NCBI RefSeq assembly: GCF_964355755.1
Contig: NC_092674.1
Coordinates: 1,798,001 to 1,862,000 of the forward strand
DNA length: 64,000 nucleotides
Reading direction: 5' to 3'
Source of the DNA: Antedon mediterranea
Lineage: Eukaryota > Animalia > Echinodermata
Shown: in pieces, positions 10,520 to 44,747 of the stretch
How the letters are laid out: each line of letters starts with the position of its first letter
How positions within the stretch are numbered: position 1 is the stretch's first letter
Notes under the pieces: generated by a model
The model's database searches: none
Told to the model about the DNA's origin: nothing
Seen by the model: only the letters and a program-made list of their open reading frames with translations
Made by a program: the position numbers and the translations under genes

Positions 10520-10546
10520 GATATCATTACGCGCTAGCCTATAAAG
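10520..10546 (+). promoter_or_regulatory. Cluster core promoter, class A: ATATCATTACGCG...CTATAAA (related copies at 13039, 15049, 16953, 22506; variants at 18539, 24634)
   Basis: Motif recurs ~85-185 nt upstream of the ATG of micro-genes 1-7. Confidence 0.65.
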
Positions 10547-10636
10547 TAAAACAGATTTATAGTAGATGTGACAGATCGCATGGTCGTAGAACCAATAACG
10601 TTGTTAGAAAAAGGTAAATAGGGTTCAGGAAAAATA

Positions 10637-11814
10637 ATGGCGGGAATAGACCAGCCCGGTCCCAATCAAAGGTAAGAAAATTAAATTAAATTGAAGATTT
10701 AAAATATCTTCATCGGTTGTGTACTGTACTGTAATTAATACTCAATTATTATAAAACTGATTCGATGTTTCTTTCACTAATTTCACATCAGTTGAATTCC
10801 GTAATTGTGTTTTAATAAATAAATAAATACCAAAATTCTCCAAATAAATGTATACATATTAAAATGTATATTGTTTTGTAGAATTTTAAACATATTTCAT
10901 TATTTCATATTTATCATCAGAAAAAAAATATTTGAATTTAAATACATTGTTTTATACATTTATTTTTAAATACATTGTCTAATTTGTTAATGTATACAAA
11001 GAAGTAAATTTATTAAATTGGTAACGTCATTTCAAATAAATTAAATCAAGAAACAAGATGTAGGCTTGTCTTAATCATTAATCTATAGCAGAGGTAAATA
11101 TCAGGCAAATTGCATAATAGTCATAATATAAAAATTGGTTGGTATCTTTTATTAATACAAATTAATCTTTCATTAATAAAAATATTAAAAATAATTTGAT
11201 AATGAATTTTGGCATAAGTTAAAGATTGCTATTAACATTCTTTGCAATGTTTCTCATATACTATTATTTGAGAACTGTAATGTTTGGATTTTTGAAATTA
11301 TATTATTTTTACCATTTTAAGAATTTATATTTATTCATTGTTAACAGCATAGATTTAAAATTACACATTGTTGGAGAAAATAGATACCTCACTGAAAGTG
11401 GTGTTGGACATTGGACAATCAGCCAGTTTCTAGAAAATATACATTTAGGCGCGTACAGAGCAGAATATATTAATGGGGCTATCATTAATGAATACAGTCA
11501 ACTAAGAAATCTTACATCTAAAACTCTATACCTAAGGTACGTTTACTCGTCATCAGTATTATAATCACCATCATCTGAAACATCATCTGCACCTGCATTT
11601 TTTAAACAAAATTGGCGTTTATTAGTAAACCCAAACCGTTGTTTTTTTTTTTATTAATTTGCTGGTCTATATCCTAAAAAACTTAATTCCAGATATATCT
11701 ACCAACACATTATAGTTTAGTATTTTAGTTTTAGTTTTTGATAAAGGTAACTTTGTAATAGCAATGACTGCTTTTAATGTGTCAATATATTTTTTCTATT
11801 TTAGGCGGCGCTAG
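10637..11814 (+). CDS. Micro-gene 1: shared tag + highly divergent beta-grasp/Ubl-like domain, ~77 aa
   Basis: Exons 10637-10671 (MAGIDQPGPNQ, ag|gtaag), 11348-11536 (SIDLKLHIVGENRYLTESGVGHWTISQFLENIHLGAYRAEYINGAIINEYSQLRNLTSKTLYL), probable exon 11805-11814 (RRR*); unspliced alternative stops at 11564. Confidence 0.6.
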
Positions 11815-12179
11815 TCGTGTCGATGTCGTTGTTTTTGCTGACTTGATTCTCCAAGAAAGTACTTCAACAACAACAACAACAGATTTTCCATTTATTTACA
11901 AAAGCTTCTGTTTAAGTTTTTTTCACTGTTAATTAATGCTATTTAAACCTTGCTTCATGAAATCATTATAGTAAAATATAAATGTATTATTTACATTGAT
12001 TACGTCTACTCAACAAATCAATTAATGAATTAAATTTAATAACATATATACAAATAAATTATTCTTGTGTGTTATTGTTTGTTACGATAGTAAAGTCTGT
12101 TTCCACGAGGTGAATCTATTCCTGTGATAAAAAAACTTGTATTTTTTATTTACGTGTTGTGATGATTTTTAAAAAGGCC

Positions 12180-12362
12180 CAGCAAACATCAGCAGATTCA
12201 GGAGAATAATGTAGGATTCGTGTGGATAGATTCGCCATACAAGGCCATATACATGGCTGCAGTTGCGTGCTAAAATTTGAATTAGTGTTTACCGACCGAC
12301 CATCCGACCAACCGACCGACATAGTGAGATACATGTAGAGTCGCGTTGCACGCGAATAAAAC
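12180..12362. repeat. Interspersed repeat with (accg)n tract; related copies at ~24121-24226, ~40500-40600, ~43400-43480
   Basis: catggctgcagttgcgtgct...accgaccgac...agtcgcgttgcacgcga seen in both orientations. Confidence 0.55.
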
Positions 12363-13148
12363 CAGGAAATATGTGTTTATTGCGACAAAGCTCCTATTCA
12401 TTGAGAATGGCAAATGGGATGCACTGTTTACAAAATTGTCTTAAGGATTTGTTTAATTAAACGGTTACTGTAAATTACAAAATATTTTTTTCTGGAGCAT
12501 AGGCAATTGTGTTCTGCAATAGCAAAATGCAGCCTTCACTTGAAACGCCCCCACAATCTATACCAATGACTTATAAGCACCTCTTAAATGTTTTAATGTT
12601 TAAAATAAGTTTGTTAATCTAACAAATAATAATGTGAACATCATAGAAATAATATTTTTTTTTTATCGATTATGGTATTGTTATTAAATCCAAGAAGAAT
12701 GCAAAAGTAACCATTTACATAGAGTGAATTTAATAACATTACAGTTTAACCTTTCGGTGCTCTAACTACGATGGCTTCTAACTCTCCAGGCATTGTAATA
12801 ATTATATTTATAACTTTTCATTCATTATTTTAAATAATTTAAGTTCAATAGTATGATAGTCATTATTCGTACAGAAATTGTATTTGTACTGTCAACTTAC
12901 AGGAGTTAAATTATATAAAAAATGTGAGTGGTACCAAATACACCGATTAGATAGAAGGAACAAATGGGGTTTGGATGGGTGTCCGGTATCGTAGGTATCC
13001 GCTTACTAGAGGAGAGAATTCACTTCAGGTACCATTAAATATCATTCCGCGTAACTATAATATACCGATTTTCTAATTTAAAACAGAACTATTCATAGAT
13101 ATCAGTGCTGATAAATACGTTTAAAGTGAACTATCTTACTCTGGAAAT

Positions 13149-13607
13149 ATGGCTGACAAATTCCAACCAGCTGCAAATGAGAAAAAGTAAGAAAATAATT
13201 AGTAACGAAGGGTTAATTATAGTTGCTATTATTACAGTTAATATTATTTTAAAGTTCGGAATGGACTAATAAATATCACTTTTTCAGGATTAATTATTGT
13301 TATAAAAAGTAACAATAAAAAGTAGAAAAAAAAAATTCTGATTGAAATTTACTTTTGTTTAGCTACCTTTCGTTTCCTTTAAGTATGTTAATTGGTTTTC
13401 TGTGAAACAAAAAGTAAATTTTTTCTACGAAATGTATATTTTGAACATTCCAAAATTTGTTTATATATTTTTATAACTTTTGTAATTTAGATAAAGCGTT
13501 AATAATGTATTTTTATTTTTAACAGGATATGCCCTAACTGTCGCCAATGGTTCTCTCCAAAAGATTTTAAGATACATATTAAAACATGTTTACCGAAAAA
13601 AAAATAA
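13149..13607 (+). CDS. Micro-gene 2: shared tag + CCHC (UBZ4-spacing) zinc finger, 39 aa
   Basis: Exons 13149-13186 and 13526-13607: MADKFQPAANEKKICPNCRQWFSPKDFKIHIKTCLPKKK*; C-x2-C-x11-H-x3-C. Confidence 0.8.
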
Positions 13608-15132
13608 ATAAAATTACGCTATACGTAACACGACATGGGCTGGTTATACAAATAAGTTGTTAGTTCGTTAGTAACAGTTACAGTGAAGAGAGTAAAAACA
13701 CAATGAAAGGATAAACTGGATGCGATGATCTCAAGGCACTCAACAATAGTAAAAGAAATATTCCAGATCATTCTCCACATTGACCTAAGCCATATTCCGG
13801 GACTTAAAAGCAAAATTATTACGATGCAAGTTAATGTTGTCAAGATTACTTAAAGATACAGTAATACCTTCACATTTTAATATGGATTATACGGCAAATA
13901 CTGTTCGATTACAAAACTGTTCAATTCAAACATGAAATTTATATACTTGTCCTATAAAAAAAGTAAGTGGTTCATACATAACAAACTGAATTATGAACTT
14001 TTAAAATAAATATGTTTACTTTTTTTCTTATTATTTTTGGATTCTATTTTATTACAATATGTAGAATAATTAATAATTATGTAATAATTGGTAATCCATT
14101 TATTTACAAACAAAATCGCATTTAAACTTTTAATTAATATTAAGAATTGACAATGTTTGAATTCTCACAGCTTATGAACTTTTAAATTACATTTATTTAC
14201 ATTTTTATTGATTTAGGGATTTGTAATAGATTCCTATTTCATTAGATTCATGTGGTGGGTTTCTAAGGGTGGACAAAGTGGGATAGGAGCCATTTTATTA
14301 AATTAATTTCATTTACTGTATTTACAAACACTTTCTAGCGTCCGAAAACATCTCCACTTTATTAACAGTGTGTGAGTTCTCTAGACTGCCGCTAAATAAA
14401 CCTTGCTTTTATTTAATCATTTAGTCAAAATAATGTGTCTTTTTTTGGTCATTTATTTTGTTTAAAATTAAAATACGCTGTTTACATAGAGAACGTTCAA
14501 CCAACAAGTGTTGTTGAGTGTTTCATGATATAGTGGAGGCAGACGAATCCAGAAAAAGAATGTTTTGTCTTCTAAGTTCGGAAAGACAGTTTTTCTACTT
14601 ATACTTTTGTAGGTATTATATACAACTCTAAAACAACATAGACCTATATCAAATTATAGTTAAACTATAATTAGGTAAAGATAAGCTATAAATTGCGGTC
14701 AAAATATTCTGGATCTGTTAAATAACCTCAATTGATTAATTTCCATGCCACAGTAAGCAGAGAACCTAAATACAGCATTTTTACACGTGGTCCAATACAC
14801 TGTGGATTAATTAAATTTTCACTTTATAGGTTATAACAAGAGAAACATCAGAATATTTTCTTTAAAATTCTTTTTTTTTTAAAGAGAAATGAAATCATTA
14901 TAACTGGCATGATATTGAAACAAAAAAGAAAGAGTAAAACTAAATGACGATTGTTGCTTTAAAAAAAGAATGGAAATTGATTTACAATAGAGTATGATCG
15001 ATATTTCACCCTTTTGTTAAAAGCAGTGACTTACTTTGGTTAAGATATAATATCATTACGCGTATATATAACTATAAAAATACAGAACTTCTATTCTAAA
15101 CTAAAACGCTTCATAGTCATAGTGGCGAAAAT

Positions 15133-15653
15133 ATGGCTGACAAATACCAACCATCAGCGAACGAAAAAGGGTAAGAAGGCAATATATAGTTTGGAATATT
15201 GTTCACATGTAATCTATAAGGTAAAATTTTACATTAAATAGAGCATAACTAAAAATTCGTTACTGTGAATCAAGAGCACGATGAATAATAAAGAGATGAG
15301 AGATTGCTTATAAATTTTGGCAACATAACATTATAAAGTTCCATCTAATTTTTAACCTAATTGGACTTCCAAGTAACTCTTTTTAAAATTCTCACCTGTG
15401 TTATTGAGCCTAAATCTTAGAATTCACAAATTATTGATAATATAATTACTTATCGTTTTATATCGCCCTAGCTTCTTGGTCGGTTTGTTACTAAACTTAG
15501 AAATACTTGTTTTCAAAATGTTTTTAGAAAATTATAAAAAGTTTTAATACGGGTTTTTTTTTCATTTTTAACAGCCAATGCCCACACTGTCACTGGTATT
15601 TCTATGCAAGAAACATAGCGGCACACGTACGAAACTGTCCATCAAGACCATAG
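15133..15653 (+). CDS. Micro-gene 3: shared tag + CCHC zinc finger, 38 aa
   Basis: Exons 15133-15170 and 15575-15653: MADKYQPSANEKGQCPHCHWYFYARNIAAHVRNCPSRP*; C-x2-C-x11-H-x3-C. Confidence 0.8.
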
Positions 15654-17061
15654 ATCTTATGATTCTACGTTACCGTATAATATGTGTCACGCTGCATGCA
15701 TGAAGTATGTATACTAGTATGTCTCACGCTTCATGGACTGGTGATATAAAAAACAAAGGTTTAAGGATTGTTACCAAAAGTTCCGAAGAGCCAAAGTATA
15801 AACTGGATACGAACTAAATATATTATGACGCCTATGAACTCAACAACCGTAAATTGATATTCCCGGACCTAATTTCAAAATTAAGCAACAGTTATAGTAC
15901 AACGTGAATTGTCGTAAAGTTTACTTACAGACACGTCTTCGTTCACATTTTCAATAAATATGAATTATATGAAAAATACAATTACAGAACTGTTCCATAT
16001 AAACATGGTGTTAGTTATGTTTACTATGAGCCTAAACTGTTTGTGGTTCATACTTGTAACAAACCAACACGCGTATCGTAATTGACATTATCTATTTACG
16101 TAGAGATACTTACTACATTTTAATTCGATTGCTGGTGTACAGGCATACATTTAAGATATAATATTTGGTTAAATGTACATGAATTAAGAAGGTGTAACAA
16201 AAATCACGACAAAAAAATGTATCACTGTAGTATACAGTGGATAATATTTATAATGGCCTTAAAGATTATACTAAGAGAGACGGGAATATATAGAATAATT
16301 GATTAGATAATTAAAAAAAGTAAAAAGTTTCTAAGTATTTGAAAAATTTCCATGCCAGAATATATTAAGATTTGACAGTGTGGGAACTCTCAAATAGACT
16401 GCTGCTAAATAAACCCTGCTTTATGAAAACATTTGTCATAATAATGTGTATTTCTATGTCATTTATTTTGTTTAACGGTAAACTGTGCTGTTTGAGAACT
16501 ATACAGTCTTTGATTGTTTTACTCTTATGTAGAAAATAATTCACTAATTTAATTTTGATTATCACACCATTTAATACATGCATTAGTATATCTATTATAT
16601 AATAACTTAATATAACTAAACTAAGATGGGATTTTGGAAATTAATTCTGTAAATTTAATCAGATAGATGGAAATATCATAGATTGTAAAATATTAGTATT
16701 TTACCTAACAAGAATATATATTAAGAAATAATACCACACTGCAAAAGGGGTGTAGACTGGGTCAAGTTTAGATTTAGGAAAATGGAAACTACAAAGCTAA
16801 GATACTTATGTCTATAATTAATATTTCGTATAATTGGCCTCTGAGTTTTTCTTTATAATTATGTTTTATCCATATTTGCAAATAATATATGCATGAAAAA
16901 TTGATCAATAAAGAAGTATTGTTGAGAGACTTATTTCAGTATATAAAATACGATATCATTACGCGAAAACTATAAAGCAGAGCAGAATTTCTCTCTTATG
17001 ACAAAACGGTTCATAAACGAACTTCTGATAAACACGCTTAAACGATACTAATCTGGGGGTA

Positions 17062-17772
17062 ATGGCTGATCAACCCAGAGACGAACCAGCGGCAAATGAA
17101 GGGTAAGATGCTAATCATATCTAAAAGTAAATTATATAGATATAGGCCTAGTATACTTAACAGTAATATTTACTGTCAAGTGTTTGACTTATTTTTACGG
17201 GTTAAAAGGTTCTATATTCGTTACCTTTCAAATAATACCGTTACTGAAGATCAAGAGACGTAGATGAATATTAAAATAAGTAGTAAGGATGGTGCTTATA
17301 CATTTGACTAATTTCATCAAGAATTAGAATGTTTCAATTATATTATACTTCCATCTAAACTTTTTATAGAATATTTACTCGTAATATTATTAGTCCAGTT
17401 CATTTTAAATGAAATAGACAAAATTGATCAAATCAATGGAGGGCATATAACAAGATTGTTTGCGAAAGTCACACTTTACCACCTTAATAGAAGAAATACA
17501 AAAAAAAATAACTAAAATTCTTTTTGTATTTAACTGTTTCTAAATTACTTTAGAAAAAACTATTAGATTTGCGCTAGTTTGTTTGTAATACAATATCAAA
17601 CAAGATAGTCTCTGATATGTTAAGATGTATATAAACGTTACTACATGATTGTCTCTGATATGTTACGTTACTACATGATTGTCCTTTGCTTTTTAACATC
17701 AGATGCCCACGCTGCCACAGGTCGTATTGGTATTACACTTATTGGATTCACCGTTTGTTCAACTGCAACTAA
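17062..17772 (+). CDS. Micro-gene 4: shared tag + aromatic-rich CCHC zinc finger, 36 aa
   Basis: Exons 17062-17102 and 17703-17772: MADQPRDEPAANEGCPRCHRSYWYYTYWIHRLFNCN*; C-x2-C-x11-H-x4-C. Confidence 0.78.
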
Positions 17773-18683
17773 GAAAGATGATCTTTCACGTTTAAATATC
17801 ATGCTATATGGACTAGGAATATACAACCAAATCATCAATGGGACAGTCAGTAAGTTATCAAGAGAGAGAAACCAAAAAAAAAAAGAAGAAGAAACTGAAA
17901 CACTAATGATACAAACCAAATACATTGTGTAAGTACCTTTAATAGTAATGGGAGATTCAATACACCGTAAATAACTTTTTTTACTAACTTGTTCCATCTT
18001 GCAAGTGTGGAGGATGACAAATATTTCTCAAACTAAAAGTTCTCTACTTACAACATTCTGATATTTAGACCAAAATAATTGTCAGTACAGTACTACAATT
18101 TGAACATTTTTGTAATTTTGTTTATGAGTCTATATTTATTTTAAGATGTGTAATTCCTAGAACACTTTTTACTACTTTTTTTGTTTTTATACGCTATGAA
18201 AATGACAGCTACTATAATATCCAACTATAAACTTCCTAATTGTCGTACGACCAATGTTTCTATATTATATCTTGTTGACTAAAAAACCTTTAAAAAAGCA
18301 AAAGCTACAGGCCTACATTAATAGTTATTATGAACTTTTCGCTGCATTATATCTGATTATCTCTATCATCCTTTGTTGTTTCGTTATACAATTAGTATAC
18401 GCATCAAGGTATATATTATCTAGATCTACTATTTGGTGATTTTTAATACACTACTACATGGGTGATAATATTAATTTGTTCATATTGTCTAAATTATGCA
18501 TCTTATGAATATTTCATTGATTCATCTTTCACAATGAAATATCAATGCGCGAACTGCATTTACCCAATACGTTCAATTGTATCTATTCCATAAAATAAAC
18601 TACACGACACTTATACACACTCATTTTAGAGAACATTCTAGTTCTGCATCTAAATTATATACGTAAGTTTTTACTCTGAAAAC

Positions 18684-19338
18684 ATGTCGGGTGGTAGTGG
18701 CCAACCAACATTCGAACCATCACCAACTGAAAAGGGGTAAGAATATCGTCTTTAATTAGTAAAGCAGATTATTGAAATTTATATTTAGCAGATAAATATT
18801 CAATGATAACAATTTTGAACTATTTCATATTAACAGTAATATGGAACTTAAATCGTTAAAATACAATTTTAATAAACATAATTAATTTTTTTTCGATCCA
18901 AGCCGTTTTGTTGTTTTTTAATACAAACATCAATAAAGGTTTTTGCTGGCCAACTTTTGTTAAGGCCAACTAAGACAGCATCGTACGACGAGGCCCGACG
19001 AAACGCCTCGACTCGTCGGTGCTGTCTGAACTGAATCCCGACGAGAGACCAGTCGTCTTCGGATAGCCTCGTCGTACAACGCAGTCTGAGTTGACCTTAA
19101 TAATGACGCTGTCTGAGTTGGCCTTAATAAAAGTTTAATTTTGACAATTTTGAAATGTATTTTTAGTTGTTTCGAATGTGTAAAACGTTAATTATCTTTT
19201 GACAGAGATGACAAAGATACGACCGATACGTCAGGTGGTGAAAACACCGGAAGCACCACGAGCAAACGCAGTGGATGTCCGACATTGTTCACCTATTGTT
19301 CCGAATGGCCGGCTACAGATATTGATGTTAAACTGTAG
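18684..19338 (+). CDS. Micro-gene 5: shared tag + disordered/Cys-containing peptide, 61 aa
   Basis: Exons 18684-18736 and 19206-19338: MSGGSGQPTFEPSPTEKGDDKDTTDTSGGENTGSTTSKRSGCPTLFTYCSEWPATDIDVKL*. Confidence 0.65.
18961..19126. mobile_element. Harbinger/PIF-like MITE in the intron of micro-gene 5
   Basis: TIRs taaggccaactaagacagc ... gctgtctgagttggcctta in TAA context; the right end appears twice. Confidence 0.6.
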
Positions 19339-20780: not shown

Positions 20781-22626
20781 CTTGCGACTTTGAAGCTGCG
20801 CCTATGTGTTTCTCCATGCGTAGTTTTAGTTTTATAGTTGTTAAATTCACAATTTTAACGGTATGATTTTTTTAATACGCTAACTCTTAGAGTTCATATT
20901 GGGTTTGAGTTTATAGCATGATTTTCAAGAGTACGTTATTTTTACATTCTCCTTCTTTAAATACCATTTTTACATTTAAATAAATCTATTTATCGTATGT
21001 TAATTTATTGATGTTGACATTATAGTATAAACTTGGTTTATGTTTTTATTCCTACTCCATTTCTATTCTATTGAAGAATATATAAATGAATAAGAACCTA
21101 CAGATATTCTTTTACTATGCCATTTCTTTACAAATTCATTGTAGTAACTTCTGGTAAAGTTTTGACACTGTTAGTTCTTAGAATATTGCTGATAAATTAA
21201 ACCTTGCTTCATGAAATCGTGTCTCGTGTCTTTTTAAGCATTCATTATCTCTATTTATAATAAAATAGTGTTTACAGTGATCACGTCTAATCAACATATC
21301 AATATTAACTATCAACAGAGAATTTAAAGAGATTGTTAAGGAAGACATAAATCAACATCTCAATCGCAAAAAAATATATTTTTCTTAAACTCGACAGAGC
21401 AACATTGCACCATTGCAGCAGAATAACTTCACGTATATTCTTTAAACTTTAATAACTTGACTTTAGCTGCCACACCTAACCAATTTGCTGCTATACTCAA
21501 ATGAGTCTCTACACAGTATAGGAAGAGGATGATGATGATAATGATGATGATGATGATGATGATTTTTTGACTTTATATTCAATAATATTAATAACTAAAT
21601 TGACGTGTAACACAGATGATCTTGTAAAGAGTGATTACTGCTGCAAATGAAGAACAAACTAATAAGATATTCGGTAATACAGCATATCATTTGTATCACA
21701 TGTGGTGCCTGTATCATATAAGGTCAGTGTATGAGTATGATACTAGGAGATACATGTGAAACACATGTGATTTTCCTATTCCTATGATACTGAGGCAATC
21801 TAGATACAGTACCGAGAATCGGGTGGTCTATTTTAGACGAAGTGATTCGAAAATATGGTGACATGGGACTGCTGACTCTTGTAGTGACAGTAATCATTAC
21901 TTTAGAAGTCCCTGACCAATTTCATCTTTGTACATTGTATATATGTTTTGTTGGTCGAATAAATAAATTAAATGAAATGACAGTAAATAATACTTAAGGG
22001 GAAAGTTAATTCAAATAAGAACAATTTGGTATTTTGAAACATTTTTGTGATACATTTATACTAAAATAGAGAAAATTCATTATAAATAAAAGTTTAATCC
22101 TTTTCTCTGTTTTACTTAATATAAGCTTACATTACATGGACCTGAACTATGTAACTATTGAGTTACAAAAAACAGTTGAAATTAAAAGTTAGTTAAGTTA
22201 GTTTATATTACTTTGCATTTAATTTTGTAAAACAAAAACAACAACAATTATACAAGTAAAACAAATAAATAGTAGTTGTAACCACTATCTTAATTGGATG
22301 CAATTTTCATTCTAATTTAGTGCTTAGAACAATCTCATTGGCTGTTACTCGACGCGCTATGAATTAATATACCATACTATAAAAAGATATATAAATTGTT
22401 TTCATTCACTTTCTTTTTAAACGGAAATCCACCTATAGTTAAAAATGAATATTTAAAATAAAAAAGAAGTATTGTTAAGAGACTTATTTCAATATTATAA
22501 AATACGATATCATTACGCAAAAATACTATAAAAACATTAAGCCGAACATATTTTCTCTCTTATGAAAAAACAATTCATAAACTAACTTCTGATAATATTT
22601 CTTAAACGACATTAATCTGAACAAAA

Positions 22627-23213
22627 ATGGGTGACGAGCCATCGCCAAATGAAAGGCAAGTAATACGTTATAGGCCTAGTATATTTAGCAGTATTATTTA
22701 CTGTCGGTAATAGTTTACGATATATCTACAGATTAAAAAGGTTATATTAAGTTGCCTTTTAAATATATACCGTTATGTGGGAAGGGTTCATCAACAATTT
22801 GAATGAAAGTTAAATTTTACTCTAATGTCAAAATAAAATTTTTATTAAATATTAACTCATAATTGTAATAGTTCAGTTCATTTAATTAAAAATATAAACA
22901 AAATGTATTAAATCACAGTGGAGGATATGTTATACGATTGTTTGTATACACTTATATTTAAAAAAAACTAAAATAAAACTAATTTTTGTATTTAGCCTTA
23001 ATTTATTTACATTAAGTTTAATTTTGCTTTAGTTTGTTAGCTAGTTTGTTAGAGAATACCAATCAAGATAGTCACTGATATATTACGTTAAGATGTATAT
23101 AAACGTTACTACATGATTGTTCTTTGCTTTTTAACATCAGATGTGAATACTGCCACAAGAAGTATTGGATTTATAGGATTCACCGTCTTTTCTTCTGCAG
23201 TGGGAAACCATGA
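22627..23213 (+). CDS. Micro-gene 6: shared tag + CCHC zinc finger, 33 aa, GC-AG intron
   Basis: Exons 22627-22655 (AG|GCAAGT) and 23141-23213: MGDEPSPNERCEYCHKKYWIYRIHRLFFCSGKP*; intron and exon 2 are clearly paralogous to micro-gene 4. Confidence 0.7.
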
Positions 23214-31693: not shown

Positions 31694-31744
31694 TATCATA
31701 CTGTATCATACTGTATCATACTGTATCATACTGTATCATACTGT
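31694..31744. repeat. (tgtatcatac)n 10-bp tandem repeat
   Basis: Directly visible. Confidence 0.85.
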
Positions 31745-31960
31745 AGTCATTTTTTACTATTGTACATTTTCATTTTCTTCTGGAAAATTGTTTTTATATC
31801 TGAGAAAATGTATTTTCACTTGATCTATTTAAATAATGTTGTTGATCGTCTTTCCTCAAATGAATAAAAGTGCAAACACAGTATTGTTATCTATGCAATG
31901 CAATTATATCTACCTCACTGGTCTACGTTATGACACGTTATTTATTTTGGGGGTTTTCGT

Positions 31961-32006
31961 ATCACTACGCGTACTCTGTGTACGTCAATACCATACTATA
32001 AAAAGA
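31961..32006 (+). promoter_or_regulatory. Cluster core promoter, class B: TACTRCGCGT...CAATA(TA)CCATACTATAAAAAGA (related copies at ~33830, 37226, 40872, 43784; orphan copy at ~22345)
   Basis: Recurs upstream of micro-genes 8-12; the copies at 40872 and 43784 contain TGAGTCA (AP-1 consensus). Confidence 0.65.
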
Positions 32007-32095
32007 CCTTTTGAAAAATAATTATCATTAGTGTGTACAATTCACTTGCTGAACAACATAATCTATATATAGTTAAAGAGAAATATTTTAACAGT

Positions 32096-32648
32096 ATGGC
32101 TTTCAGGGATCAACCTGGTGCAAACCGAAGAAATGGGTAAGTTTACATAGGCCTAGTAAAAACATAAATACTTGTTAGCTAGACAAACTAATCATAATTA
32201 CACAGATTTTTTTTTTTTTTTAAAGACAATAATTAAGCAAAAGAAAAATGTCACCGGTTCCTTTGCTTTCTAAATTATTATGGTTCTGGAAAGATTACTT
32301 ATAACTTTTAGCTTCTATGATTAGTGTCTCTAACAAAATACTAGATTTGAACGTCACCCAATTCCAAAATGCCTAAAATCATACTCGTAAATTTCTATTG
32401 TTGAACTTAGTTTTCAGATATTTGTGAACAATCTTCAAGGTCAAGCTATACCATTTGACGTATATCCTGATACAGATGTAATGGGACTAAAAGATATGAT
32501 ATTCCGGAGATTTGGGGTTGCCGTAGGAAATCAACGACTATTGTATGGTGGTAGTCAGTTAAACGACGGGGACACCATGGAATATCTCGGCATTCGAATG
32601 GGAATGCAAGCAACAATTCACTTAGTTCTACGAGTACACGGAGGATAG
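32096..32648 (+). CDS. Micro-gene 8: shared tag + ubiquitin-like domain ending LVLRVHGG, 92 aa
   Basis: Exons 32096-32136 (MAFRDQPGANRRN) and 32411-32648 (GFQIFVNNLQGQ...QRLLYGGSQLNDG...IHLVLRVHGG*). Confidence 0.85.
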
Positions 32649-33942
32649 TAAAACAGTAATGATTAAAAACTGCAAATTATGACATAGAAAAGAGATAATG
32701 TTTTTGTTATCGCATTGAAGATGGACTTTAAGAATTCTTTTGCTAAATTAGTTATATATATATAGGTCCTATGTGATATTTATATTAATTAAGTAAAACA
32801 TACGATATTACCATGGTATTAATACTGTGCTTACTTTCATTCTTTTAATTAAGAATAAGTTAAGTTACACGGGTTTAATTATATATGTTGACTTTTTTTC
32901 ACTGTTGTTGGTACGTGGTACTTGGTAATTGACTCTTCATTCCTTGGGGTAGGGTCCTCATCTTTATATAGGATATTTCTTTTTAAGTTATTGTATTTTT
33001 CTATTTATCATATACTTTAAGATCGCGTAATTATTAAGTATTTAGTATTCTTAAAACTCGTTATTTCTACCTTGTGAACCATAAATACGTAATTATAAAA
33101 TATTTAGTTAATAACTTATAAATAACTTTATAGTTGCCCTTAAATTTTTAAATTTTAATATTGTAAAGGAAATTCATATTCCTTTTATTTTGTATAGTTA
33201 TCTTAGATATCAATTTCAAATGTAGCTATTGTTCTGTTTTTTTTTAAAAATAATTAGTGAATATTATAAATGTAGAATATTAAAGGCAATTATGTAGTTA
33301 ATTTATAATATTTAAACTAATATATAGAATGCTCTAAAACTCATCGATATTATTATTATTTCAATAAATATATATTCGAATTAAAAATACATGATTTTGT
33401 TCTTTATTTATGGGTGTAGGCCTAATATCTAGCTACTTAATCATAGAGGTGATGATAAGGTGATGATGATGATAATATTGACAAGTTGACAGGATGAGGT
33501 GATGATCATGACGGTAATATAAGTGAAAAAAGAATGATGACAATAATGATTATGACGATGGTGATACAACATAGTGTCGACAATAATACGGAAAACAAGA
33601 ATCGCCATCGATGACACATTGATCTTATTGATTATCATGATTTAAGATTCTTGGAGCTTTTTCTCAAATATGCACTTATTAAAAGTACTGTACTTTTAGT
33701 CCATGGCCATAGGGAAGAGTTAATTTTTTGTATATTAACACGATTTCTACCTATTGAACTGGCCTATGATATACTATTATTCACTTACTTCCACTAATCA
33801 CAGCATTATCACACTAAGATTATACATTGTATTACTACGCGTCTATGTATCAATATTCCAAGGGTATAACCAGATCATTTATGAAAAATAAATAATCTTT
33901 TGGTAAACGGAAATATAGTCCAAAAACTACTCGAGGTAAAAT

Positions 33943-35688
33943 ATGGCTAATCAGTTTGAACCAGGTGCAAACCAAATAAATCGGTAAGTACACGCAACCC
34001 CTTTACATTTTAGGCTACACTGGTTTAAAGTGATCAAAATAAGATACATAACTTGTAGGTCTACCATCACCATCAATATCCTTTCTTTCAAAAAATGTTC
34101 AAATAAAGTATATTCAGCAGAGACATCGTTCATCAGAGTCGGAACAATTTATTATTTATTATTTATTATTTTTCTATTTATGATTTAGGATTTATTATGA
34201 TTTGTTATTTATGATCTATTATGATTCATGATTTATTATTATCATTAATGATTAATGATTAATGATTCATGATTAATGATTCATGATTTATTATTATCAT
34301 TAATGATTAATGATTAATGATTCATGATTTATTATTATCATTAATGATTAATGATTCATGATTCATGATTTATTATTATCATTAATGATTAATGATTCAT
34401 GATTTATTATTATCATTAATGATTAATTATTATCATTAATGATTAATTATTATCATTAATGATTAATTATTATCATTAATGATTAATTATTATCCATGAT
34501 TCATGATTTATTATTATCATTAATGATTAATTATTATCCATGATTCATGATTTATTATTATCATTAATGATTTATTATTATCCATGATTCATGATTTATT
34601 ATTATCGATTAATGATTTATTATTATCCATGATTCATGATTTATTATTATCCATGATTCATGATTTATTATTATCCATGATTCATGATTTATTATTCATG
34701 ATTTATTATTCATGATTTATTATTCATGATTTTGCTGATGTATTACGTATAACGTATTACGTATTACGTATTACGTATTACGTATTACGTATTACGTATT
34801 ACGTATTACGTATTACGTATTACGTATTACGTATTACGTATTACGTATTACGTATTACGTATTACGTATTACGTATTACGTATTACGTATTACGTATTAC
34901 GTATTACGTATTACGTATTACGTATTACGTATTACGTATTACGTATTACGTATTACGTATTACGTATTACGTATTACGTATTACGTATTACGTATTACGT
35001 ATTACGTATTACGTATTACGTATTACGTATTACGTATTGCGTATTACGTATTACGTATTGCGTATTGCGTATTGCGTATTGCGTATTGCGTATTGCGTAT
35101 TGCGTATTGCGTATTGCGTATTGCGTATTACGTATTATTTATTATTTATTCGTTTTCACTAATTGTAGCTTATCTAAAGTTAGATTTCAGATACATGTTA
35201 CATTTAATGGAATGCAGAGACACTTCAACGTATTTCCTGAAACATTAGTAGAAGAACTTAAAAGAATGGCATTCAATAGTTTCGGAGTTGATGATGGAAG
35301 TTTAACCTTTAATGGTGTAGAACTAGTGAATGGTAACACCATGGCAAGGTGCAATATTATAGTAGGGTCCAACATTACCTTGCACGATTCATCATGCTGT
35401 AGGTAGGTCAATCCAAAACGCGTTTTCAAATTTTGTAATTACTGATTAATCATTTTCCAACCAGACATTCAATAATTCATTCATTTTCATGTGTTTTATT
35501 TTTAAAATACACTATTTGTTATTTTAATATAACACTATGGCAATTTGGAATAGAGTGAAGATATTTCCCAATGGGATCTATTTTAAATATGTAAAACTAC
35601 TTGAAAACTGCAATAACTAACGTAAAATGGTGTCTTTAAATCATGGCCTATTAATGTATATTATTTGTTTAATTTCAGAATTTCGTAA
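33943..35688 (+). CDS. Micro-gene 9: shared tag + Ubl with predicted C-terminal CCRIS (CaaX), 89 aa
   Basis: Exons 33943-33983 (MANQFEPGANQIN), 35184-35402 (RFQIHVTFNG...LTFNGVELVNGNTMARCNIIVGSNITLHDSSCC), 35679-35688 (RIS*); unspliced alternative ends CCR* at 35406. Confidence 0.75.
34148..35140. repeat. Intronic satellite block: AT-rich (attatcattaatg) repeats followed by (TATTACG)n/(TATTGCG)n heptamers
   Basis: Directly visible inside intron 1 of micro-gene 9. Confidence 0.95.
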
Positions 35689-36256: not shown

Positions 36257-36446
36257 ATGAAGATGTATATATTTAAACCAAGTAAGTTAAAAGTGGTTAG
36301 GACACAAACATTTATTCCATAATTTCTTTTTTAACTTTTAACTCACTGTGAGCCGAGCGGTTAAGACAGTGGAACCGTAATTACATAGCCATAACATCGG
36401 CAGGGGTTCGAGGCTCACTCACTCCATGGTTCTGGTGGTAGAACGA

Positions 36447-36480
<34 letters not shown>

Positions 36481-36980
36481 AGTGTACACATCTAGCTCGT
36501 GTGCACTTTAAAGAACCTAGTACATCTTTCGAGACGAGTAAGGGGTTACTCAGGTGTATTAGTACATCACAGCCACTGGTCACCAACTGGGCCCTCTGGG
36601 AGACCAGTCTTTGACTGAAGAGGTTACCCAGTATAAATATATATTTCAATCTAATCAATTTTTTAATTCTTCACTGGCCATTCTATCGAGAATATGAAGA
36701 GATTGGTCTTAGTTATTTGTGGGTCGCGCCATGATACACTTACTAGATTACTATTTACTAATGTGATCTAGAGGTTCTATCTCATAGAGCCCAAATTCAT
36801 AGTGTGAAGGTAATACACTGATGTATTTTATGACATTGACTAATATTATTATGTGTCTATTTGTGCAGTAATAAGGAAGATGAATCGTGTTGGTTTTGGC
36901 TCTTTATTGTAATAATCTTTATTTCTATCATCATGATTATTGCCGATTTCATATATTTCATTGTTGCCGTTATCTTTTAG
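36257..36980 (+). pseudogene. Degenerate paralog of micro-gene 7 (tag + transmembrane tail)
   Basis: Exon-1 remnant MKMYIFKP(S) at 36257 resembles gene 7 exon 1. Exon 2 at 36869-36980 (NKEDESCWFWLFIVIIFISIIMIIADFIYFIVAVIF*) is preceded by an intron end homologous to gene 7. The strong donor at 36282 is phase 1 (out of frame); a weak GT at 36286 is phase 2. Confidence 0.5.
36346..36650 (+). mobile_element. tRNA-derived SINE
   Basis: A-box-like gagccgagcggttaag, B-box-like ggttcgagg, then ggactataaaccgtaggtcc body. Confidence 0.65.
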
Positions 36981-37346
36981 AAACATAAGAGTTGGCATTT
37001 ACGGTAACGTAAATTTGATCTTTGTCAATGTATTCAGACCCTATTATTTGGGTGGTGCCGACGGAAACCTAAACATTACATTAATTAGTTATACATTACT
37101 CTATACATTTTGACAACCATTTTCATTTATACTTTGTATACTAACATTGTTTTTAAAGTCAGGCTCACTGACGTTACTTCTTAATTATCATACAATCATC
37201 TTCCTGTCTGCATTATTAATATATATTAATACGCGTATGTATGTACGGAGACTATAAAAAGATCATTTTAAAAGACAAATTCATTTTCTTGGCAAGCGGA
37301 TTCTATTTATAATCAAGGAATACTATTTTGTACACATTTTAAAAAC

Positions 37347-37908
37347 ATGGCTGAAGTGTTTCAACCAAGTCCAAACCCAAAGCCACCACCAGTAGAGTGA
37401 GTACACGTAACCTTAGACCTGTAATTTGCCAAAGTATACATACAATTGTATTATTATAAATAATGATATCAAATGCAATGTGTTTTTAGTTTAAAAAGTT
37501 AGCAAATCACTACTAATAGATGTTTGGGCATTATTCTATTTGTCATAGACATTGTCCTTTTCAATAAATTCCCTAGTTATAGAATGTCATTCGTCACTAA
37601 TTTCAGTTATCTAAATTAGATATAAGGAAATAAAGGTGAAACTGAAGAAAAGCATTGATGCCAACAGGAAAACTTACATACTTAAAAACGTTGATTCAAC
37701 CATGAAAGTAAAAACATTTATTGAACGGATACAGGATAAATGGGAAGACGACGATGAGGATGAGGGCAACGGCGAGGGCAACGGCAAAGGCAAAGTTAAG
37801 AAGTTATATTACAATAAAAAACTGCAAAAAGAGGATGATATACTAAGCTCTGTATTAAAGTAATAGAGTAATATAATTCAACTGGTCACATTAGGCAGAC
37901 TAGGATAG
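37347..37908 (+). pseudogene. Micro-gene 10: shared tag + divergent Ubl with acidic loop, truncated by TAA TAG
   Basis: Exons 37347-37396 (MAEVFQPSPNPKPPPV) and 37620-37863 (YKEIKVKLKK...MKVKTFIERIQDKWEDDDEDEGNGEGNGKGKVKKLYYNKKLQKEDDILSSVLK**); the frame continues SNIIQLVTLGRLG* to 37908. Confidence 0.6.

Positions 37909-38358: not shown

Positions 38359-38414
<56 letters not shown>
38137..38414 (+). mobile_element. Penelope-like element terminal fragment embedded in (TA)n
   Basis: Contains a hammerhead core; flanked by TA runs at 38128-38136 and 38362-38414. Confidence 0.55.
38195..38236 (+). ncRNA. Minimal type I hammerhead ribozyme motif
   Basis: ttgca-CTGATGA-a-GGGC-tagtgtt-GCCC-GAAA-gc-TC-tgctaa: conserved core, stem II, short stem III, weak stem I. 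Confidence 0.65.
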
Positions 38415-38416
<2 letters not shown>

Positions 38417-41031
38417 TTTTTATTTTATTTTTATTTATTCAATTTTCTGCCATATACAATACAAAGAAAACAAAACAAATATAAGAGGCAAGGAAAGACC
38501 AAACAGGTGCTAAACACCTATGCTAGTTGGTCAACAAAGAACAGAGCACAGAAATAAACCAATACAATCTCAAAGAAACAAAATTACGTTCTACAATTAA
38601 AGCATCTACAAGAAAACTACACACATTTTCAATATCAAAGTTATTTTTAAAATAAATATTGAGATAATTTAATAATTTAGGTTTTAAAAGAAATATCTAA
38701 ATTGCGAATTTCACCGGGTAAGTTGTTCAAAATTCTGGTAATATTAATATATATCAATTATTAATTAACTAATAACCATGACTTTTACTGAAAATAATGT
38801 ATTGTTTCATTTCAGGATTTTGATTGCATTGTGTAACTACAACGTTCCTGTTGGTCATCGTTCGTATTAAAATGACTTTAAAGATATATTGTCCCCCTAA
38901 AAAAATATTTGTTTAAATTTTTTTGTTGAATATGTTATTTTAATGTCACATAATAGTTATTCACTCTCACAAAAAATTGGGTCTGAAAAAAATTTATTTA
39001 CCTGAGAAAAATGTAATTTAAAGCAAAAAATGGTCAAATTGTCTGGAAGACAATGAATTTTTGGGTAATTTAACTGTTTATTTTGTCTTTTTATAGGTGA
39101 AATAATGTTTGTCCCCCCCCCCCCCGTTTTTTTTCTTATGGAAGTGAACAACTTCATTAAAACTGCAAAATGGCCTATTAAAAGTCCGATTTTAAAAATC
39201 TTTATTTTTCATGATTTTGGGGGACAATACATCTTTAAATAAAATGAATATCATATTATTTACAAAAAATACTATATATAATTGTATTTTTTTTAATGTC
39301 AAGTAAATAATAATAATAATAATATTTATAGAGCGCACATATCCACCAAGTTCTCAAGGCGCTTGTAAAAACCATGAGATAAATATTAAATGTGCTTAAT
39401 TAGACTATACTAATTAGTTATGCATAATGTGAGAATTAATTAATATTATTATTAATTATTGAATATCATATTATTTACAAAAAAATACTATATATTATTG
39501 TTTTGTTTTAATGTCACGTAAATAAATATTAAATGTGTTTAATTAGACTATACTAATTACTTATGCAAATGTGAAGATTAATTAATATTATTATTAATTA
39601 TTAATATTATTTTCATTATTAATTATGTATTAATTAAGCAAATCAGACAACAATATTTTTTGTGCTATACCATTAAAGTTTCTTTTCATTATGTGTAAAC
39701 AATATTATTATTATTATAGATAATTAGATAAATCATGAATGATTCCACCGAACTTACGAGTTAAAATAACTATAGTGAGGCATCTAATGAATAGGCAAAC
39801 TGCCTTAAAATGTGACATCTTTCGAGGGGTATTCGTTTCGAGAAACTATTCTTATCATCAGAAAAGAAAACAACGCTTAGAGTACTTATATACCAATAGG
39901 ACAAGTTGTACTCTATGCGTTGTTTTCTGTTCTTATTATTAAATGTGGAAATTACCTAAATCCTTAACTTAAAGTTAATACATTTTATTCTATAAATGAT
40001 AATATTATTTCAATAAATATGCATTAGAATCTAAGAAAACATGATTCTCTTTATTATTTCAATATATAGTTACTATTTAAAAATCATAGAGTTGATGATA
40101 AGGTGATGATATATCAAGAAATATGATGATGATAATGACAAGTTGACAGGGATGAGGCGATGGTCATGATATAAGTGACAAATTAAAGATGACAATAATG
40201 GTTATGACAATGGTGAAAAAATAATATAACTTATCGATGACGTCAACGTTGATTACAATGCCTTCAGATATTGATTACATGATTTCTCAGATTGCACTTT
40301 TTACATATACTTTTAATTCGCCAAACGCATCCAAACGTATGGTAATTTTCTATCACCCTGGTTAACAAGAATGAGAACATATTTTGACACTGGTAGCCTT
40401 TTAGTAATCCTGTATCTGAATTTCTCTGCAATGATCGAGTTATATATTCCTAGCTAGCTATCGACAATTTACAAGAATGCTTGTAACAATCCCGGATATA
40501 GGCAATATTCTCTACAGCTCACTATGTCGGTCGGTCGGTAAACAACTCAAATTTAAGCACGCGACTGCAGCCATGTATATGGCCTTGTTAAATCGCGGTT
40601 TTATTTTGTTCATAAGATATACGCCAGTTAGACCCGAACGAATTGTAATCAACTGTTTCGCCTTATGATACAGCAACGCATTATAATTATGATTTTCTAA
40701 CATTCGTATTCCTACCAAATCTACCAGCCAAATAAAAGCACACCTTAAACCTAACAAGTGAACATGTCGAGTGTTTACTGCAATGGTAGGGGTAGAATAT
40801 GTAGTACATTCATCTATTGAATTATATTTCGCAATATTATCTCATTCTCATTCGATTCTCTGTTTGCTGTGTATTACTGCGCGTTCTATGAGTCAATATA
40901 CCATACTATAAAAAGATCATGGGGAAAAATATTGTCATTATAACAACACTCACTTTTTATTCTGTAACACTCACTTTCTTGGGAAACGGAGATCAAAGTT
41001 ATTATTTTAAAAGGAATATTTGAAGAACATT

Positions 41032-41508
41032 ATGGCGGATGAGTTTGAACCAAGCCCAAATCCAAAAAACAGGTAAGTTTACACATGCCGATAGTACCGT
41101 ACAGTTTATAATAGCAATAATAAGTACTAAACGCGTCAACTTATTTGTTTATCAATTTCTGAACTGTATTAGGTCAATTGTTACTTCAAATAAATTTGTA
41201 TTCTAAAATATTTTTCACTACTTTATCTGTATAAAGCCGAATAGGTAATTTGAATTACAAATGTTTATTTGTTTAGCTTTCAGATATTTGTGAAAGAACT
41301 TCAAGGAATAAGTACACCCTTTGATGTATATTCGGAGACAACTGTATTAGAACTTAAATATAAGATAAACAGTGATCTTAATATTCCCATAAAACAGCAA
41401 CGATTAACATATGAGAGTAAACCGTTGATCAACGAGAATACCATGGAATTTTACGGCATCAGAAAGCACTCAACCGTACACTTGCTTCTACGACTGCGCG
41501 GAGGATAA
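41032..41508 (+). CDS. Micro-gene 11: shared tag + ubiquitin-like domain ending LRLRGG, 90 aa
   Basis: Exons 41032-41072 (MADEFEPSPNPKN) and 41277-41508; the 76-aa domain aligns ungapped to ubiquitin with 34/76 identities by my manual count. Confidence 0.9.
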
Positions 41509-42919
41509 ATATTATTGATGTGTATACCGTGTAACTGAACTGAACGCTATCAAAATGGAATATCATGATTGTTTGAAAAACTATATTTCACCGTAAAATC
41601 GCATTGTCACATCGTATATGAAGACGGGCGTCGTGAGGTGGTTTCCCGAATGATCGTAAAAGCAAAACGATACTGGGTATAATCGACTTGTCACCAACTA
41701 GCCATCTATTCATAAAAGTACTGATGTAGCAGCCTATCTGTACGGCGACTATATAATGGACACGAGACATGACTTACCACGACTTTTAGTTGATAGAATA
41801 TTGACAAAAATTTGTTATGAAGAGTTGTACGTGGATGTTTATGAAATTATGTCATGTTTGTAACATACAAATAAACAGTTTTAAGTTAATTTAGATATAC
41901 AGAAGAAAAGCAAAGGGATTATGGAGCGGCTATTAATAAGTATACAATACTAAGTATTGAAATTATAAAATGTTAAGCGATCTTGTCAAAGGTCAAGCGC
42001 CTATAGCCTGCCACGTTTCGATACTTAATATTGAACTTGACCTGATGTGGTTCCACAATATCTTTATATGAAAATGGTAGAGTCGATAGAAAATAATTAA
42101 ATATTGGTTATTGTTAATCAGTTATTAATATACATTGTTTTTGTTTATGTTAAACTAGGTATATGCCTATATTTAAACCTGTTTCACCTTGTTTAAAGAG
42201 AATATATCTTTAAGAATAAATGTTTATGTTACGTTCTGTGTTTCGGTTGTCAGTGTTTTAGTTATTTATATTAAGTAAAACAGACAATCGTAAGAATATG
42301 TAAAAATATGATAGTTTCCATTTCGTGTAAATATTTGCATATTGTTTATATTTTGTTAAACTAAAATATCTCTATATTAAATTTAAATAAACAATGTACA
42401 AATAATTCATATTTTGACATTTATAATTTCTTTCATATCAGTTCAATATGATTTTGCTATCATTTTATTATCGCGAAATTTAAGTTTGCACAGAAAATAA
42501 AATGATACAAAATTCCGATTTATATTTATATTCAAATAATACTCCATGTCCATTTTAATTTATAATTAAGAAGTAACTACACTAATTAAATTATTATGTA
42601 TCACTATTATGTATCACTATTATGTATCACTATTTCAATAAATGTATATTAAAGTATAAAATACACGCTGCTCTATTCTCATTTTATGTTAAATTCAGCA
42701 ATGACAGAATAAATGGTGGTGGCAATGATGATGTTGTGATGATAGTTACAAAATATCAAAGATGATGATAACAAGTTGATATGATATGGCGATGATGATT
42801 ATGACAATTACTGTAATATAGTGACAAAATAAAGATGACTAATGATCACGACGAGTTGATATATTGTCGATACAAAATACAGAAGATTATACGCCTTCTT
42901 CAAGTCTAAGTTCAATCTT

Positions 42920-43070
42920 AAGCTCTGTCTACACTATCAAACTAGCTTGACAAGAAAATGTGATGTGCCCAAATATGGTAGTGATATGTGCAAATATGGT
43001 AGTGATATGATATCATCATGTCCTCCATATATGGGCACATCACTTTTTTTGTGTGTAGACAAGGCTTTAG
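42920..43070. mobile_element. Short MITE family (TIR aagctctgtctacactatcaaac); copies also at ~8179, 51005-51126, 55597-55745, 63134
   Basis: Recurring TIR and internal gatgtgcccaaatatggtagtgat. Confidence 0.7.
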
Positions 43071-43945
43071 TTTACCATCAAACTTCGTCAAAAAATGCAT
43101 TCACATGTATATTCATTCTGGTGTCACCCTAGTTGATCAACAGCGTATGCATTGTGGGAAAGGAAATCGGAAACACCTTTTCAAAATGTATAACAAATTG
43201 GATGATGCTGTACAATACATTATTGACGTTTGCCTCTATTTTCACAACGAAATAAAAGAAATACATGTTAAATTCCCTTTTGTTTATTTTATTGTTTAAA
43301 AAAGAATGGAATGATCGAGCTATATATTCCTAGCTAGGTATCGAGAATTTACAGGCATGCTTGTAATGTTAAAAAATCCCGGATATAGGCAATAATCCGT
43401 TTTTAGTCGCGTGCAAACTATGTCAGTCGGTCAACTCAAATTTGAGCACGCGACTGCAGCCATGTATATGGCCTTGTTAAATCGCGGTTTTATTTTGTTC
43501 ATAAGATATACGCCAGTTAGACCCGAACGAATTGTAATCAACTGTTTCGCCTTATGATATAGCAACGCATCACAATTATAATTGTCTAACATGCCCGTTC
43601 GTAATTCTACCAAATTTGCCAGCATCACTGCCAAATAAAAGCATGCCTTAAACCTAACAAGTGCACATTTCAAATAATCACTGCAATGGTAGAATATGTA
43701 GTACATTCATCTATTGAATAAATCTCTATACAATGACATTACTATTTCGCAATATTATCTCTTTAACGATTCGCTGTTTACCGTATTACTGCGCGTTCTA
43801 TGAGTCAATATACTATACTATAAAAAGATATTGGGAAAAAATATTTTCGTTATTAAAACACTCACTTTTTATTCTACAACACTCACTTTCTTGGGAAACG
43901 GAGATCTAAGTTATTATTTAAAAAGAGGTATATTTGAAGAACATT

Positions 43946-44747
43946 ATGGCGTTTGATTTTGAACCAAGCCCTAATCCAAAACACAGGTGAGTTACCATTT
44001 AAACGAAATAGTACAGCGTGTGGTTAGATATTAGAATGAATAAATAATTATTGAACACGTTATTTGTATTTGTGTCTGAATTCCATACACCTTTTTTTAT
44101 TTGTACTTGAATTAGGTATTATTTGTTGTTGTACGGAAAATAAATTTATCCTTACATACATAGGGTAACTATCGGGAATCAAATTTACACAAATAAATAT
44201 TTCAATATTTATCTCTTATCTCTTATCAGCATACGCTGTTTAGGGTCACTCTCTATAAATAAGGTGAAATAAATAAATAAAATAACTTTATTTTTTTTAT
44301 AATTATGCAATTTATTTATATAAAGAATTTGGGGGAAATTAAAGAAGTTTTACTTCCTTTTCCTACCTTTCTCTCCTTCTGTAATTTATAAAAAAAAATA
44401 GATTATTTTATTTTTATTAATTGTAGATTGAAACAAATAAAGAGATAAATTATTACTTAATTAAATCAAAGAATTTGAAAACAAGTGTTTTTTATTCATG
44501 TCTTTTTTTTTTTAGATTTCAGATTTTTGTGAATGATCTGAAAGGAAAGAGTACAACATTTGACGTATATGCTGAGACAAAAGTACTAGACCTTAAACGG
44601 ATGATAAATGAACGACTTCAGGTTCCAATCAAATCTCAACGCTTAACGTATCAGGATAAACAGTTAGAAGACCATAACACAATGGAATGGCATGGTATTC
44701 GAAAGGATGCAACAATCACCTTGCTTCTACGACTGCGAGGAGGATAA
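43946..44747 (+). CDS. Micro-gene 12: shared tag + ubiquitin-like domain ending LRLRGG, 90 aa
   Basis: Exons 43946-43986 (MAFDFEPSPNPKH) and 44516-44747; 31/76 identities to ubiquitin by my manual count; upstream region strongly similar to gene 11. Confidence 0.9.

Follow-up and report, generated by a model that had tools for sequence, protein, structure and literature searches.

The stretch analysed here, a 64-kb window of AT-rich eukaryotic DNA (GC 25–39% across the window), comes from the feather star Antedon mediterranea, a name given by NCBI/UniRef RefSeq proteins. It contains twelve neighbouring tiny genes in which a common promoter motif and a common N-terminal tag are joined to unrelated exons for ubiquitin-like (Ubl) domains, zinc fingers or predicted membrane anchors; five of these joins have been shown and the others are predicted. 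The array is real, expressed, under selection and unusual in its architecture, and we infer its function. Array members were searched for throughout the window, and their predicted products are 33–97 aa long, as stated in a preliminary description of this DNA. The genes and their relatives are listed below by window position and strand (CDS, coding sequence; UTR, untranslated region; ORF, open reading frame; TM, transmembrane).

Gene 1, 10522..11814 (+): promoter motif at 10522, tag CDS 10637–10671, exon 2 at 11348–11536, exon 3 from 11805 with the stop at 11814; 77 aa, ending in LRRR.
Gene 2, 13040..13607 (+): tag exon 13149–13186, CCHC finger exon from 13526; 39 aa; 3' UTR donor at 13963.
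Gene 3, 15051..15653 (+): tag exon 15133–15170, finger exon 15575–15653; 38 aa; observed donor at 15221.
Gene 4, 16954..17928 (+): tag exon 17062–17102, finger CDS 17703–17772; 36 aa; 3' UTR splice 17929–19205.
Gene 5, 18540..19338 (+): tag exon 18684–18736, exon 2 CDS 19206–19338; a 61-aa low-complexity peptide.
Gene 6, 22508..23213 (+): tag exon 22627–22655 with a GC donor, finger exon 23141–23213; 33 aa; splicing predicted.
Gene 7, 24635..25215 (+): tag exon 24819–24853, TM exon 25107–25215 predicted from sequence and hydropathy; 47 aa; 3' UTR exon at 25544.
Gene 8, 31960..32648 (+): tag exon 32096–32136, Ubl exon 32411–32648 ending in VHGG; 92 aa; NCBI/UniRef protein P0004 equals the model.
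Gene 9, 33830..35688 (+): tag exon 33943–33983, divergent Ubl exon 35184–35402, predicted exon 3 at 35679, which would give 89 aa with a CRIS end.
TM copy 7b, 36257..36980 (+): intact phase-2 hydrophobic ORF of 36 codons (36869–36980), degenerate phase-1 tag exon (36257–36281), no promoter motif.
Gene 10, 37224..37908 (+): tag exon 37347–37396, Ubl-remnant exon 37620–37863 with an acidic insert, two stops and then a last-strand remnant.
Gene 11, 40872..41508 (+): tag exon 41032–41072, Ubl exon 41277–41508 ending in LRLRGG; 90 aa; XP_071950166.1 equals the model.
Gene 12, 43784..44747 (+): tag exon 43946–43986, Ubl exon 44516–44747 ending in LRLRGG; 90 aa; XP_071950514.1 equals the model.
Gene 13, 46943..48101 (−): exon 1 to 47954 with FEPEPT before a phase-1 donor, intron 47953–47032, acidic exon 2; 52 or 78 aa.

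The promoter motif, TAT[CT]A[ACT]T[ACG]CGC (11 nt), occurred exactly 12 times in the window, always on the plus strand (shuffle mean 0.23). It lay 82–184 nt upstream of the tag ATG in all 12 genes and was followed by a TATA-like box in 9. The tag exon has the consensus [FYD][EQ]P[SAG][PA][NTK] and a phase-2 donor. A pattern search of the window for ATG-[FYD][EQ]P[SAG][PA]-phase-2-donor exons gave 12 on the plus strand, none on the minus strand and none in any of 30 shuffles. The two patterns had been fitted to the loci themselves, and what counts as evidence is their exclusive one-to-one pairing rather than the shuffle count alone. This pairing bears out the twelve co-oriented loci of the preliminary description, which had overlooked a spliced, tag-like minus-strand gene. 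When all six frames were scanned with a somewhat relaxed tag motif, widened after gene 13 had been seen, 13 exons were returned, namely the 12 and this one. Gene 13 lacks the promoter motif and had no Pfam or protein-database match, and its array membership is uncertain. Its frame is open for 73 codons ahead of the donor and its contig extends to 48449; an ATG exon of 13 codons with a phase-0 GTAAG donor (48425–48463, +) points away from it.

The tags are polar and 9–17 residues long, and one tag position uses both Ser codon families. By promoter similarity, genes 1–4 and 6, genes 5 and 7, and genes 8–12 form groups; the cassette tree was poorly resolved (0 of 9 branches starred), its only split separating genes 8–12 from genes 1–7 (92/94). 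On inspection, the shared motif showed no recognisable standard NF-kB, STAT or IRF site.

Selection on the amino acids of the tag was confirmed. Across four disjoint pairs of whole first exons, without motif trimming, the nonsynonymous proportion (pN) was 0.20 and the synonymous proportion (pS) 0.51 (Fisher p = 0.003); the tag is therefore constrained as a protein, and more so than most of its cargo. By pair, pN versus pS was 0.08 versus 0.63 for genes 2/3, 0.14 versus 0.15 for genes 11/12 and 0.30 versus 0.33 for genes 8/9. Between genes 2 and 3, 9 of 11 residues are identical in the tag but only 28% in the module. The cassette could instead be selected as an expression or start module, with the promoter, ATG and N-terminus setting processing or half-life and the payloads acting independently, as behind signal exons. 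The promoter motif and the tag are equally invariant, all array genes start with MA, MS or MG, and frog and scorpion genes provide a precedent. We nevertheless consider this explanation somewhat unlikely, given that the constraint falls on internal residues ([EQ]-P-small-[PA]-N, 3 to 10 residues from Met), which suits a binding motif better than a generic leader.

A more specific proposal is that the tag is a truncated PAM2-like motif binding the MLLE domain of poly(A)-binding protein or UBR5, which would tie the array to translation control. Six of 12 tags contain the pattern A-x-x-F/Y-x-P, which corresponds to the latter half of xxLNxxAxEFxP as given in the available text of PMC9249222 and includes the residues (A, F and P) that were mutated in MKRN1 according to the accessible part of 10.1101/516005. 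However, the tag is best conserved at residues past the end of PAM2, the Ala is merely residue 2, and Asp stands in place of the essential Phe in 5 of 12 tags. PAM2 identity was rejected on the absence of the L-N half from 12 of 12 tags and the presence of F/Y in only 7 of 12, and we regard a role of this kind as very improbable.

Splicing was assessed in run X1, which was treated as RNA because its joints are canonical and its introns empty; its contig depths, drawn from a single sample, are coarse. Between 10400 and 20150, 6 of the 9 listed joints had GT..AG ends, the remaining 3 lay in short repeats, and 4 of 30 bins were empty. Between 35150 and 48700, 15 of 656 joints were assessed, the other 641 being mostly repeats. 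Two of the five tag–module joins in 10400–20150 were observed as predicted, at depth 409 for gene 4 (tag to finger) and 86 for gene 5 (tag to exon 2). The exon 2–3 joint of gene 1 reached depth 880 versus 8 for the unspliced contig, and a gene 2 contig began exactly at the acceptor 13526. Contigs of genes 11 and 12 started at the acceptors with 114 and 43 preceding letters, lengths compatible with exon 1 (depth 490 for the gene 12 acceptor contig). Gene 9 was barely covered (depth about 3), and the joint of the gene 13 intron 47953–47032 had depth 1275 in X1 and 0 in run X4. For genes 8, 11 and 12, proteins entered in NCBI/UniRef as "uncharacterised" from Antedon mediterranea were identical to the predicted spliced products. 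Outside support thus covers 5 of 12 joins in three module classes (RNA for genes 4 and 5, RefSeq/UniRef for genes 8, 11 and 12). Annotated proteins were retrieved for only 3 of 13 products, and protein-database searches returned none for genes 1, 4, 5, 9, 10 and 13.

Two introns proposed earlier need correction. The intron 25260–25543 lies past the TM stop of gene 7, and the tag–TM intron is 24854–25106. In gene 3, the intron 15171–15574 was unseen in X1; the joint 15221–15574 was found instead (depth 85), its donor 50 nt downstream of the predicted one, so that the ORF comprises the tag only and is 13 aa long. The case for gene 3 encoding a finger protein is weakened accordingly: its CCHC spacing is present, but the sole observed splice yields the tag alone. 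Its exon 2 forms a single 1.35-kb RNA contig (15575–16928), a long 3' UTR on a very short ORF. Read-through splices were also found: the 3' UTR donor of gene 2 (13963) splices into exon 2 of gene 3 (joint 13962–15575, depth 13), and the 3' UTR of gene 4 into exon 2 of gene 5 (17929–19205, depth 726). By eye, the paralogues 3 and 6 have no such 3' UTR donors.

The Ubl domains are the best-defined modules. Genes 8, 11 and 12 matched Pfam PF00240 above cut-off (E 1e-16 to 1e-17), in agreement with their description as di-Gly Ubls. An AlphaFold2 (AF2) model of gene 11 had a beta-grasp fold with a low-confidence tag (mean predicted local distance difference test score, pLDDT, 46 for residues 1–10). 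Its top Foldseek matches were ubiquitin at about 1 Å root-mean-square deviation, and the best PDB matches were ubiquitin itself (41–46% identity). Against the ubiquitin unit, genes 11 and 12 are identical at 35 and 31 of 76 residues, each having a single Ubl domain, not a tandem. Both retain L8, R42, K48, K63, R72, R74 and G75–G76 and carry I44 to Thr and V70 to Leu; gene 8 keeps R42 and R72 and has His at 74 and a di-Gly end. According to the accessible part of PMC12355090, R42, R72 and R74 contact UBA1, and the corresponding patch of FAT10 and ISG15 is divergent and polar. With R42, R72, R74 and GG retained, the tails of genes 11 and 12 appear conjugation-competent, as had been proposed from their sequences, and conjugation itself is predicted.

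The remaining Ubl assignments fared less evenly. Gene 9, described as a CaaX Ubl, is a divergent Ubl (profile score 26.9 bits, reached by 0 of 300 shuffles), and its C-terminus is CRIS, a CaaX box, only if the predicted splice 35403–35678 to exon 3 at 35679 is used. A repeat block (34130–35130) sits in its first intron. If so spliced, gene 9 resembles UBL3/MUB, as presented in the available text of PMC10511055, in combining a Ubl fold with a predicted C-terminal CaaX. It differs in its DNA similarity to genes 8, 11 and 12 (z 6–12) and in its weak Pfam match to ubiquitin instead of a MUB-type model. On sequence grounds the likeness is convergent, because gene 9 derives from local ubiquitin-like paralogues and has that weak ubiquitin match rather than a MUB-type one. 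Gene 10, whose acceptor is homologous to that of gene 9 (z about 5), scored 7.2 bits once the insert was taken out and the stops were replaced by X (2 of 300 shuffles at least as high; 38 of 300 with the insert kept). A Ubl remnant is present, but two stops precede the last-strand remnant and the domain is incomplete; gene 10 is probably a truncated Ubl. Gene 1, also called a divergent Ubl, has a pattern that looks Ubl-like by eye, but it scored −1.6 bits (208 of 300 shuffles equal or higher) and 0.1% in hhalign, and has a third exon and an LRRR end. Its AF2 pLDDT was 57 for a single-sequence model, which is weak alone. The earlier assignment of gene 1 finds no support here.

In genes 2, 3, 4 and 6 the CCHC spacing reported earlier was present with all zinc ligands kept (C-x2-C-x11-H-x3-C in genes 2 and 3), and all Pfam zinc-finger matches were under the curated cut-offs. 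Gene 6 is a paralogue of gene 4 (66–71% DNA identity). Ubiquitin binding by these fingers had been suggested and is not borne out: they are cationic and aromatic (3–7 K/R versus 0–1 D/E, 3–7 aromatic residues), and the acidic helix residue and the DxHxAxCL motif of ubiquitin-binding fingers are absent from 4 of 4. The UBZ4/UBZ2 fingers described in the accessible part of PMC4267625 share the CCHC ligands and, with genes 2 and 3, the spacing; the array fingers differ in lacking that motif and the helix Asp. UBZ identity was rejected on this basis.

The TM class consists of colinear hydrophobic ORFs of 35 and 36 codons in gene 7 and copy 7b (KD19 2.2 and 3.0). The copy had been called degenerate; its hydrophobic frame is intact, and the degenerate part is its tag exon. 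Gene 7 and gene 9 have homologous third exons (25508–25568 versus 35640–35702, 75% over 64 nt), which suggests an ancestral unit of three exons.

Within classes, second exons are homologous at the DNA level (z up to 45); between classes, z was mostly <3 (maximum about 3.5), with no detectable homology. The preliminary claim that one promoter and tag exon are joined to unrelated second exons is thereby upheld. Since the classes share no DNA homology, the pattern fits exon capture, and a shared cassette on unrelated second exons likely reflects capture repeated several times; gene 1 may instead be extremely diverged from a common ancestor. Turnover, also claimed earlier, is visible in truncated gene 10 and the orphan TM exon.

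These data bear on two further explanations. In one, the tag alone is the effector, acting as a decoy or competitor, and the second exons are mostly near-neutral carriers that close the frame. The tag-only RNA of gene 3, fast-evolving modules, the truncation of gene 10 and the placement of gene 5 on a UTR exon fit this, as does an unspliced read that stops just past the tag in 11 of 12 genes. That stop, however, is a by-product of phase-2 GTAAG/GTGAG donors, the Ubls of genes 11 and 12 show a dN/dS (nonsynonymous to synonymous rate ratio) of 0.33 with tail residues kept, and the zinc ligands are intact in four fingers; we think the explanation unlikely. The other sees decaying duplicates and leaky transcription with no protein function. 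Decay might be expected to produce the read-through splicing, the truncated gene and the small number of annotated products, but purifying selection acts on the tag and on Ubls 11/12, and junction depths in 10400–20150 were 400–900 versus 0–5 in silent bins. Decay is thus largely refuted already, and we give it very little weight.

The nearest precedents for the design come from secreted peptides. Anuran skin-peptide export-exon clusters, as presented in the accessible text of PMC13128954, likewise are clusters of small genes in which purifying selection keeps a short first coding exon conserved, the peptides encoded downstream vary, orphan exons and pseudogenes occur, and turnover is by birth-and-death; exon shuffling behind the frog exons is, according to that text, not yet demonstrated. 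The array shares a same-phase intron after the conserved exon, unrelated cargo and turnover, but lacks a hydrophobic signal peptide in the shared exon: the frog exon encodes a secretory signal and its cargo is secreted, in contrast to a polar 9–17-residue, putatively cytosolic motif with intracellular cargo (Ubl, finger, anchor). Scorpion venom genes formed by promoter/signal-exon shuffling, as described in the available part of PMC5308243, also share a promoter module and the phase of the intron that follows the leader, and encode unrelated folds downstream. They use phase 1 and a signal peptide, whereas the array uses phase 2 and a non-signal tag in a single tandem cluster. By analogy, the array may be viewed as this known frog and scorpion gene design fitted with a non-signal, putatively cytosolic motif.

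Among modifiers, ISG15, FAT10 and avian OASL, as covered by the accessible text of PMC12355090 and PMC11354881, resemble the array Ubls in their divergent Ubl, LRLRGG tail, altered I44 patch and being encoded in mature form. ISG15 consists of tandem Ubls, unlike the array genes with one Ubl and an N-terminal tag, and ISG15 identity was rejected on this feature. In the portions of the literature available ISG15 is described as confined to vertebrates. The Ubls named in the available text of PMC11354881 include no such family. In line with the preliminary description, we found no published account of a family with this architecture in a literature search that ran mostly without subscription papers and without supplements that might name crinoid loci, and that literature yielded no lineage-specific inducible Ubl modifier of echinoderms. 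When gene 11 was compared by phmmer with 1.84 billion representatives, 150 multi-ubiquitin proteins were obtained. Of 154 proteins retrieved, 3 carried the tag motif, all of them from Antedon; protein word searches gave 3/3, 1/19 and 0 candidates, and the ESM Atlas only weak unnamed matches for genes 13 and 1.

Upstream of the array by 6 kb and head-to-head with it, 1–4122 (−) matched DED, weak NB-ARC and TPR pieces in Pfam and represents an NLR-like gene; a frame break near 2630–2709 may be an intron or a frameshift. A LINE-like (long interspersed nuclear element) reverse-transcriptase ORF and fragments, recognised by eye, and a decayed element without a Pfam match lie at 57887–59302 (−), 7676–9190, 5206–5592 and 27300–29060. 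Minisatellite and GAT/AAT arrays lie at 20170–20790, 25950–26480, 34130–35130, 49730–50270, 51270–51740 and 56430–56900. An Rfam search of 9500–49000 gave 0 matches.

Our favoured interpretation, with a probability of roughly 0.4, is that of one motif with several addresses: a duplicating cassette whose tag is a likely binding motif, delivered to different places in the cell by the second exons. The promoter motif and tag exon would duplicate as a unit, land upstream of unrelated second exons and give co-regulated genes whose small products are translated. A UBA1-type E1 would activate the products of genes 11 and 12, and perhaps that of gene 8, and the di-Gly tail would then link them to proteins with the N-terminal tag left free; binding by ordinary ubiquitin readers would be weakened by the I44-to-Thr patch. 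Keeping the tag at membranes would fall to gene 9, through its CaaX, and to gene 7 or 7b, through its TM segment, and placing it on nucleic acid or acidic surfaces to the CCHC fingers, which are cationic and aromatic. Peptides consisting of the tag only, such as that of gene 3, would compete for the partner. Possibly the array has a defence or stress role, which we infer because of the turnover, the ISG15-like design and the neighbouring DED–NB-ARC–TPR gene.

Several findings weigh against the one-motif, several-addresses interpretation. The claims on the tag partner, the peptides and induction are proposals from sequence. None of the five sequencing runs that contain this stretch is recorded as RNA; the expression evidence comes from X1 alone, whose RNA status is a guess. 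Joins without outside support number 7 of 12, including the predicted TM and CaaX joins. Genes 1 and 2 had zero X1 depth over their exon-1 bins and their exon 1–2 joints were unseen, which is no proof of absence, and gene 3 skips its predicted donor. The disordered peptide of gene 5 had been taken for an independent module; its tag joint exists, but by contig depth its exon 2 is used about 8 times more often as the 3' UTR of gene 4. Modules are weakly constrained (dN/dS 0.33–0.86 in 7 pairs), and the first tag position tolerates both F/Y (7 of 12) and Asp (5 of 12). Protein searches, which are weak for such short, fast-evolving proteins, found no tag-bearing relative outside Antedon mediterranea.

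Carried to its full extent, the favoured interpretation would make the array a co-regulated crinoid effector kit in which one new short linear motif is conjugated to proteins by dedicated ubiquitin-derived modifiers, anchored at membranes in its CaaX and TM versions, brought to nucleic acid by the fingers and titrated by peptides made of the tag only, with every version recruiting one defence reader: an invertebrate counterpart of ISG15 arrived at by exon capture. We regard this extended form as speculative and rather doubtful. The array shows gene birth under way, in that a promoter–tag cassette (gene 5) is spliced to the 3' UTR exon of its neighbour (gene 4). The orphan TM exon at 36869, with which both donors of gene 9 are in frame, is a further sign of it. 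The array offers three candidates for direct testing, namely the annotated yet uncharacterised di-Gly Ubls that have an N-terminal motif in common.

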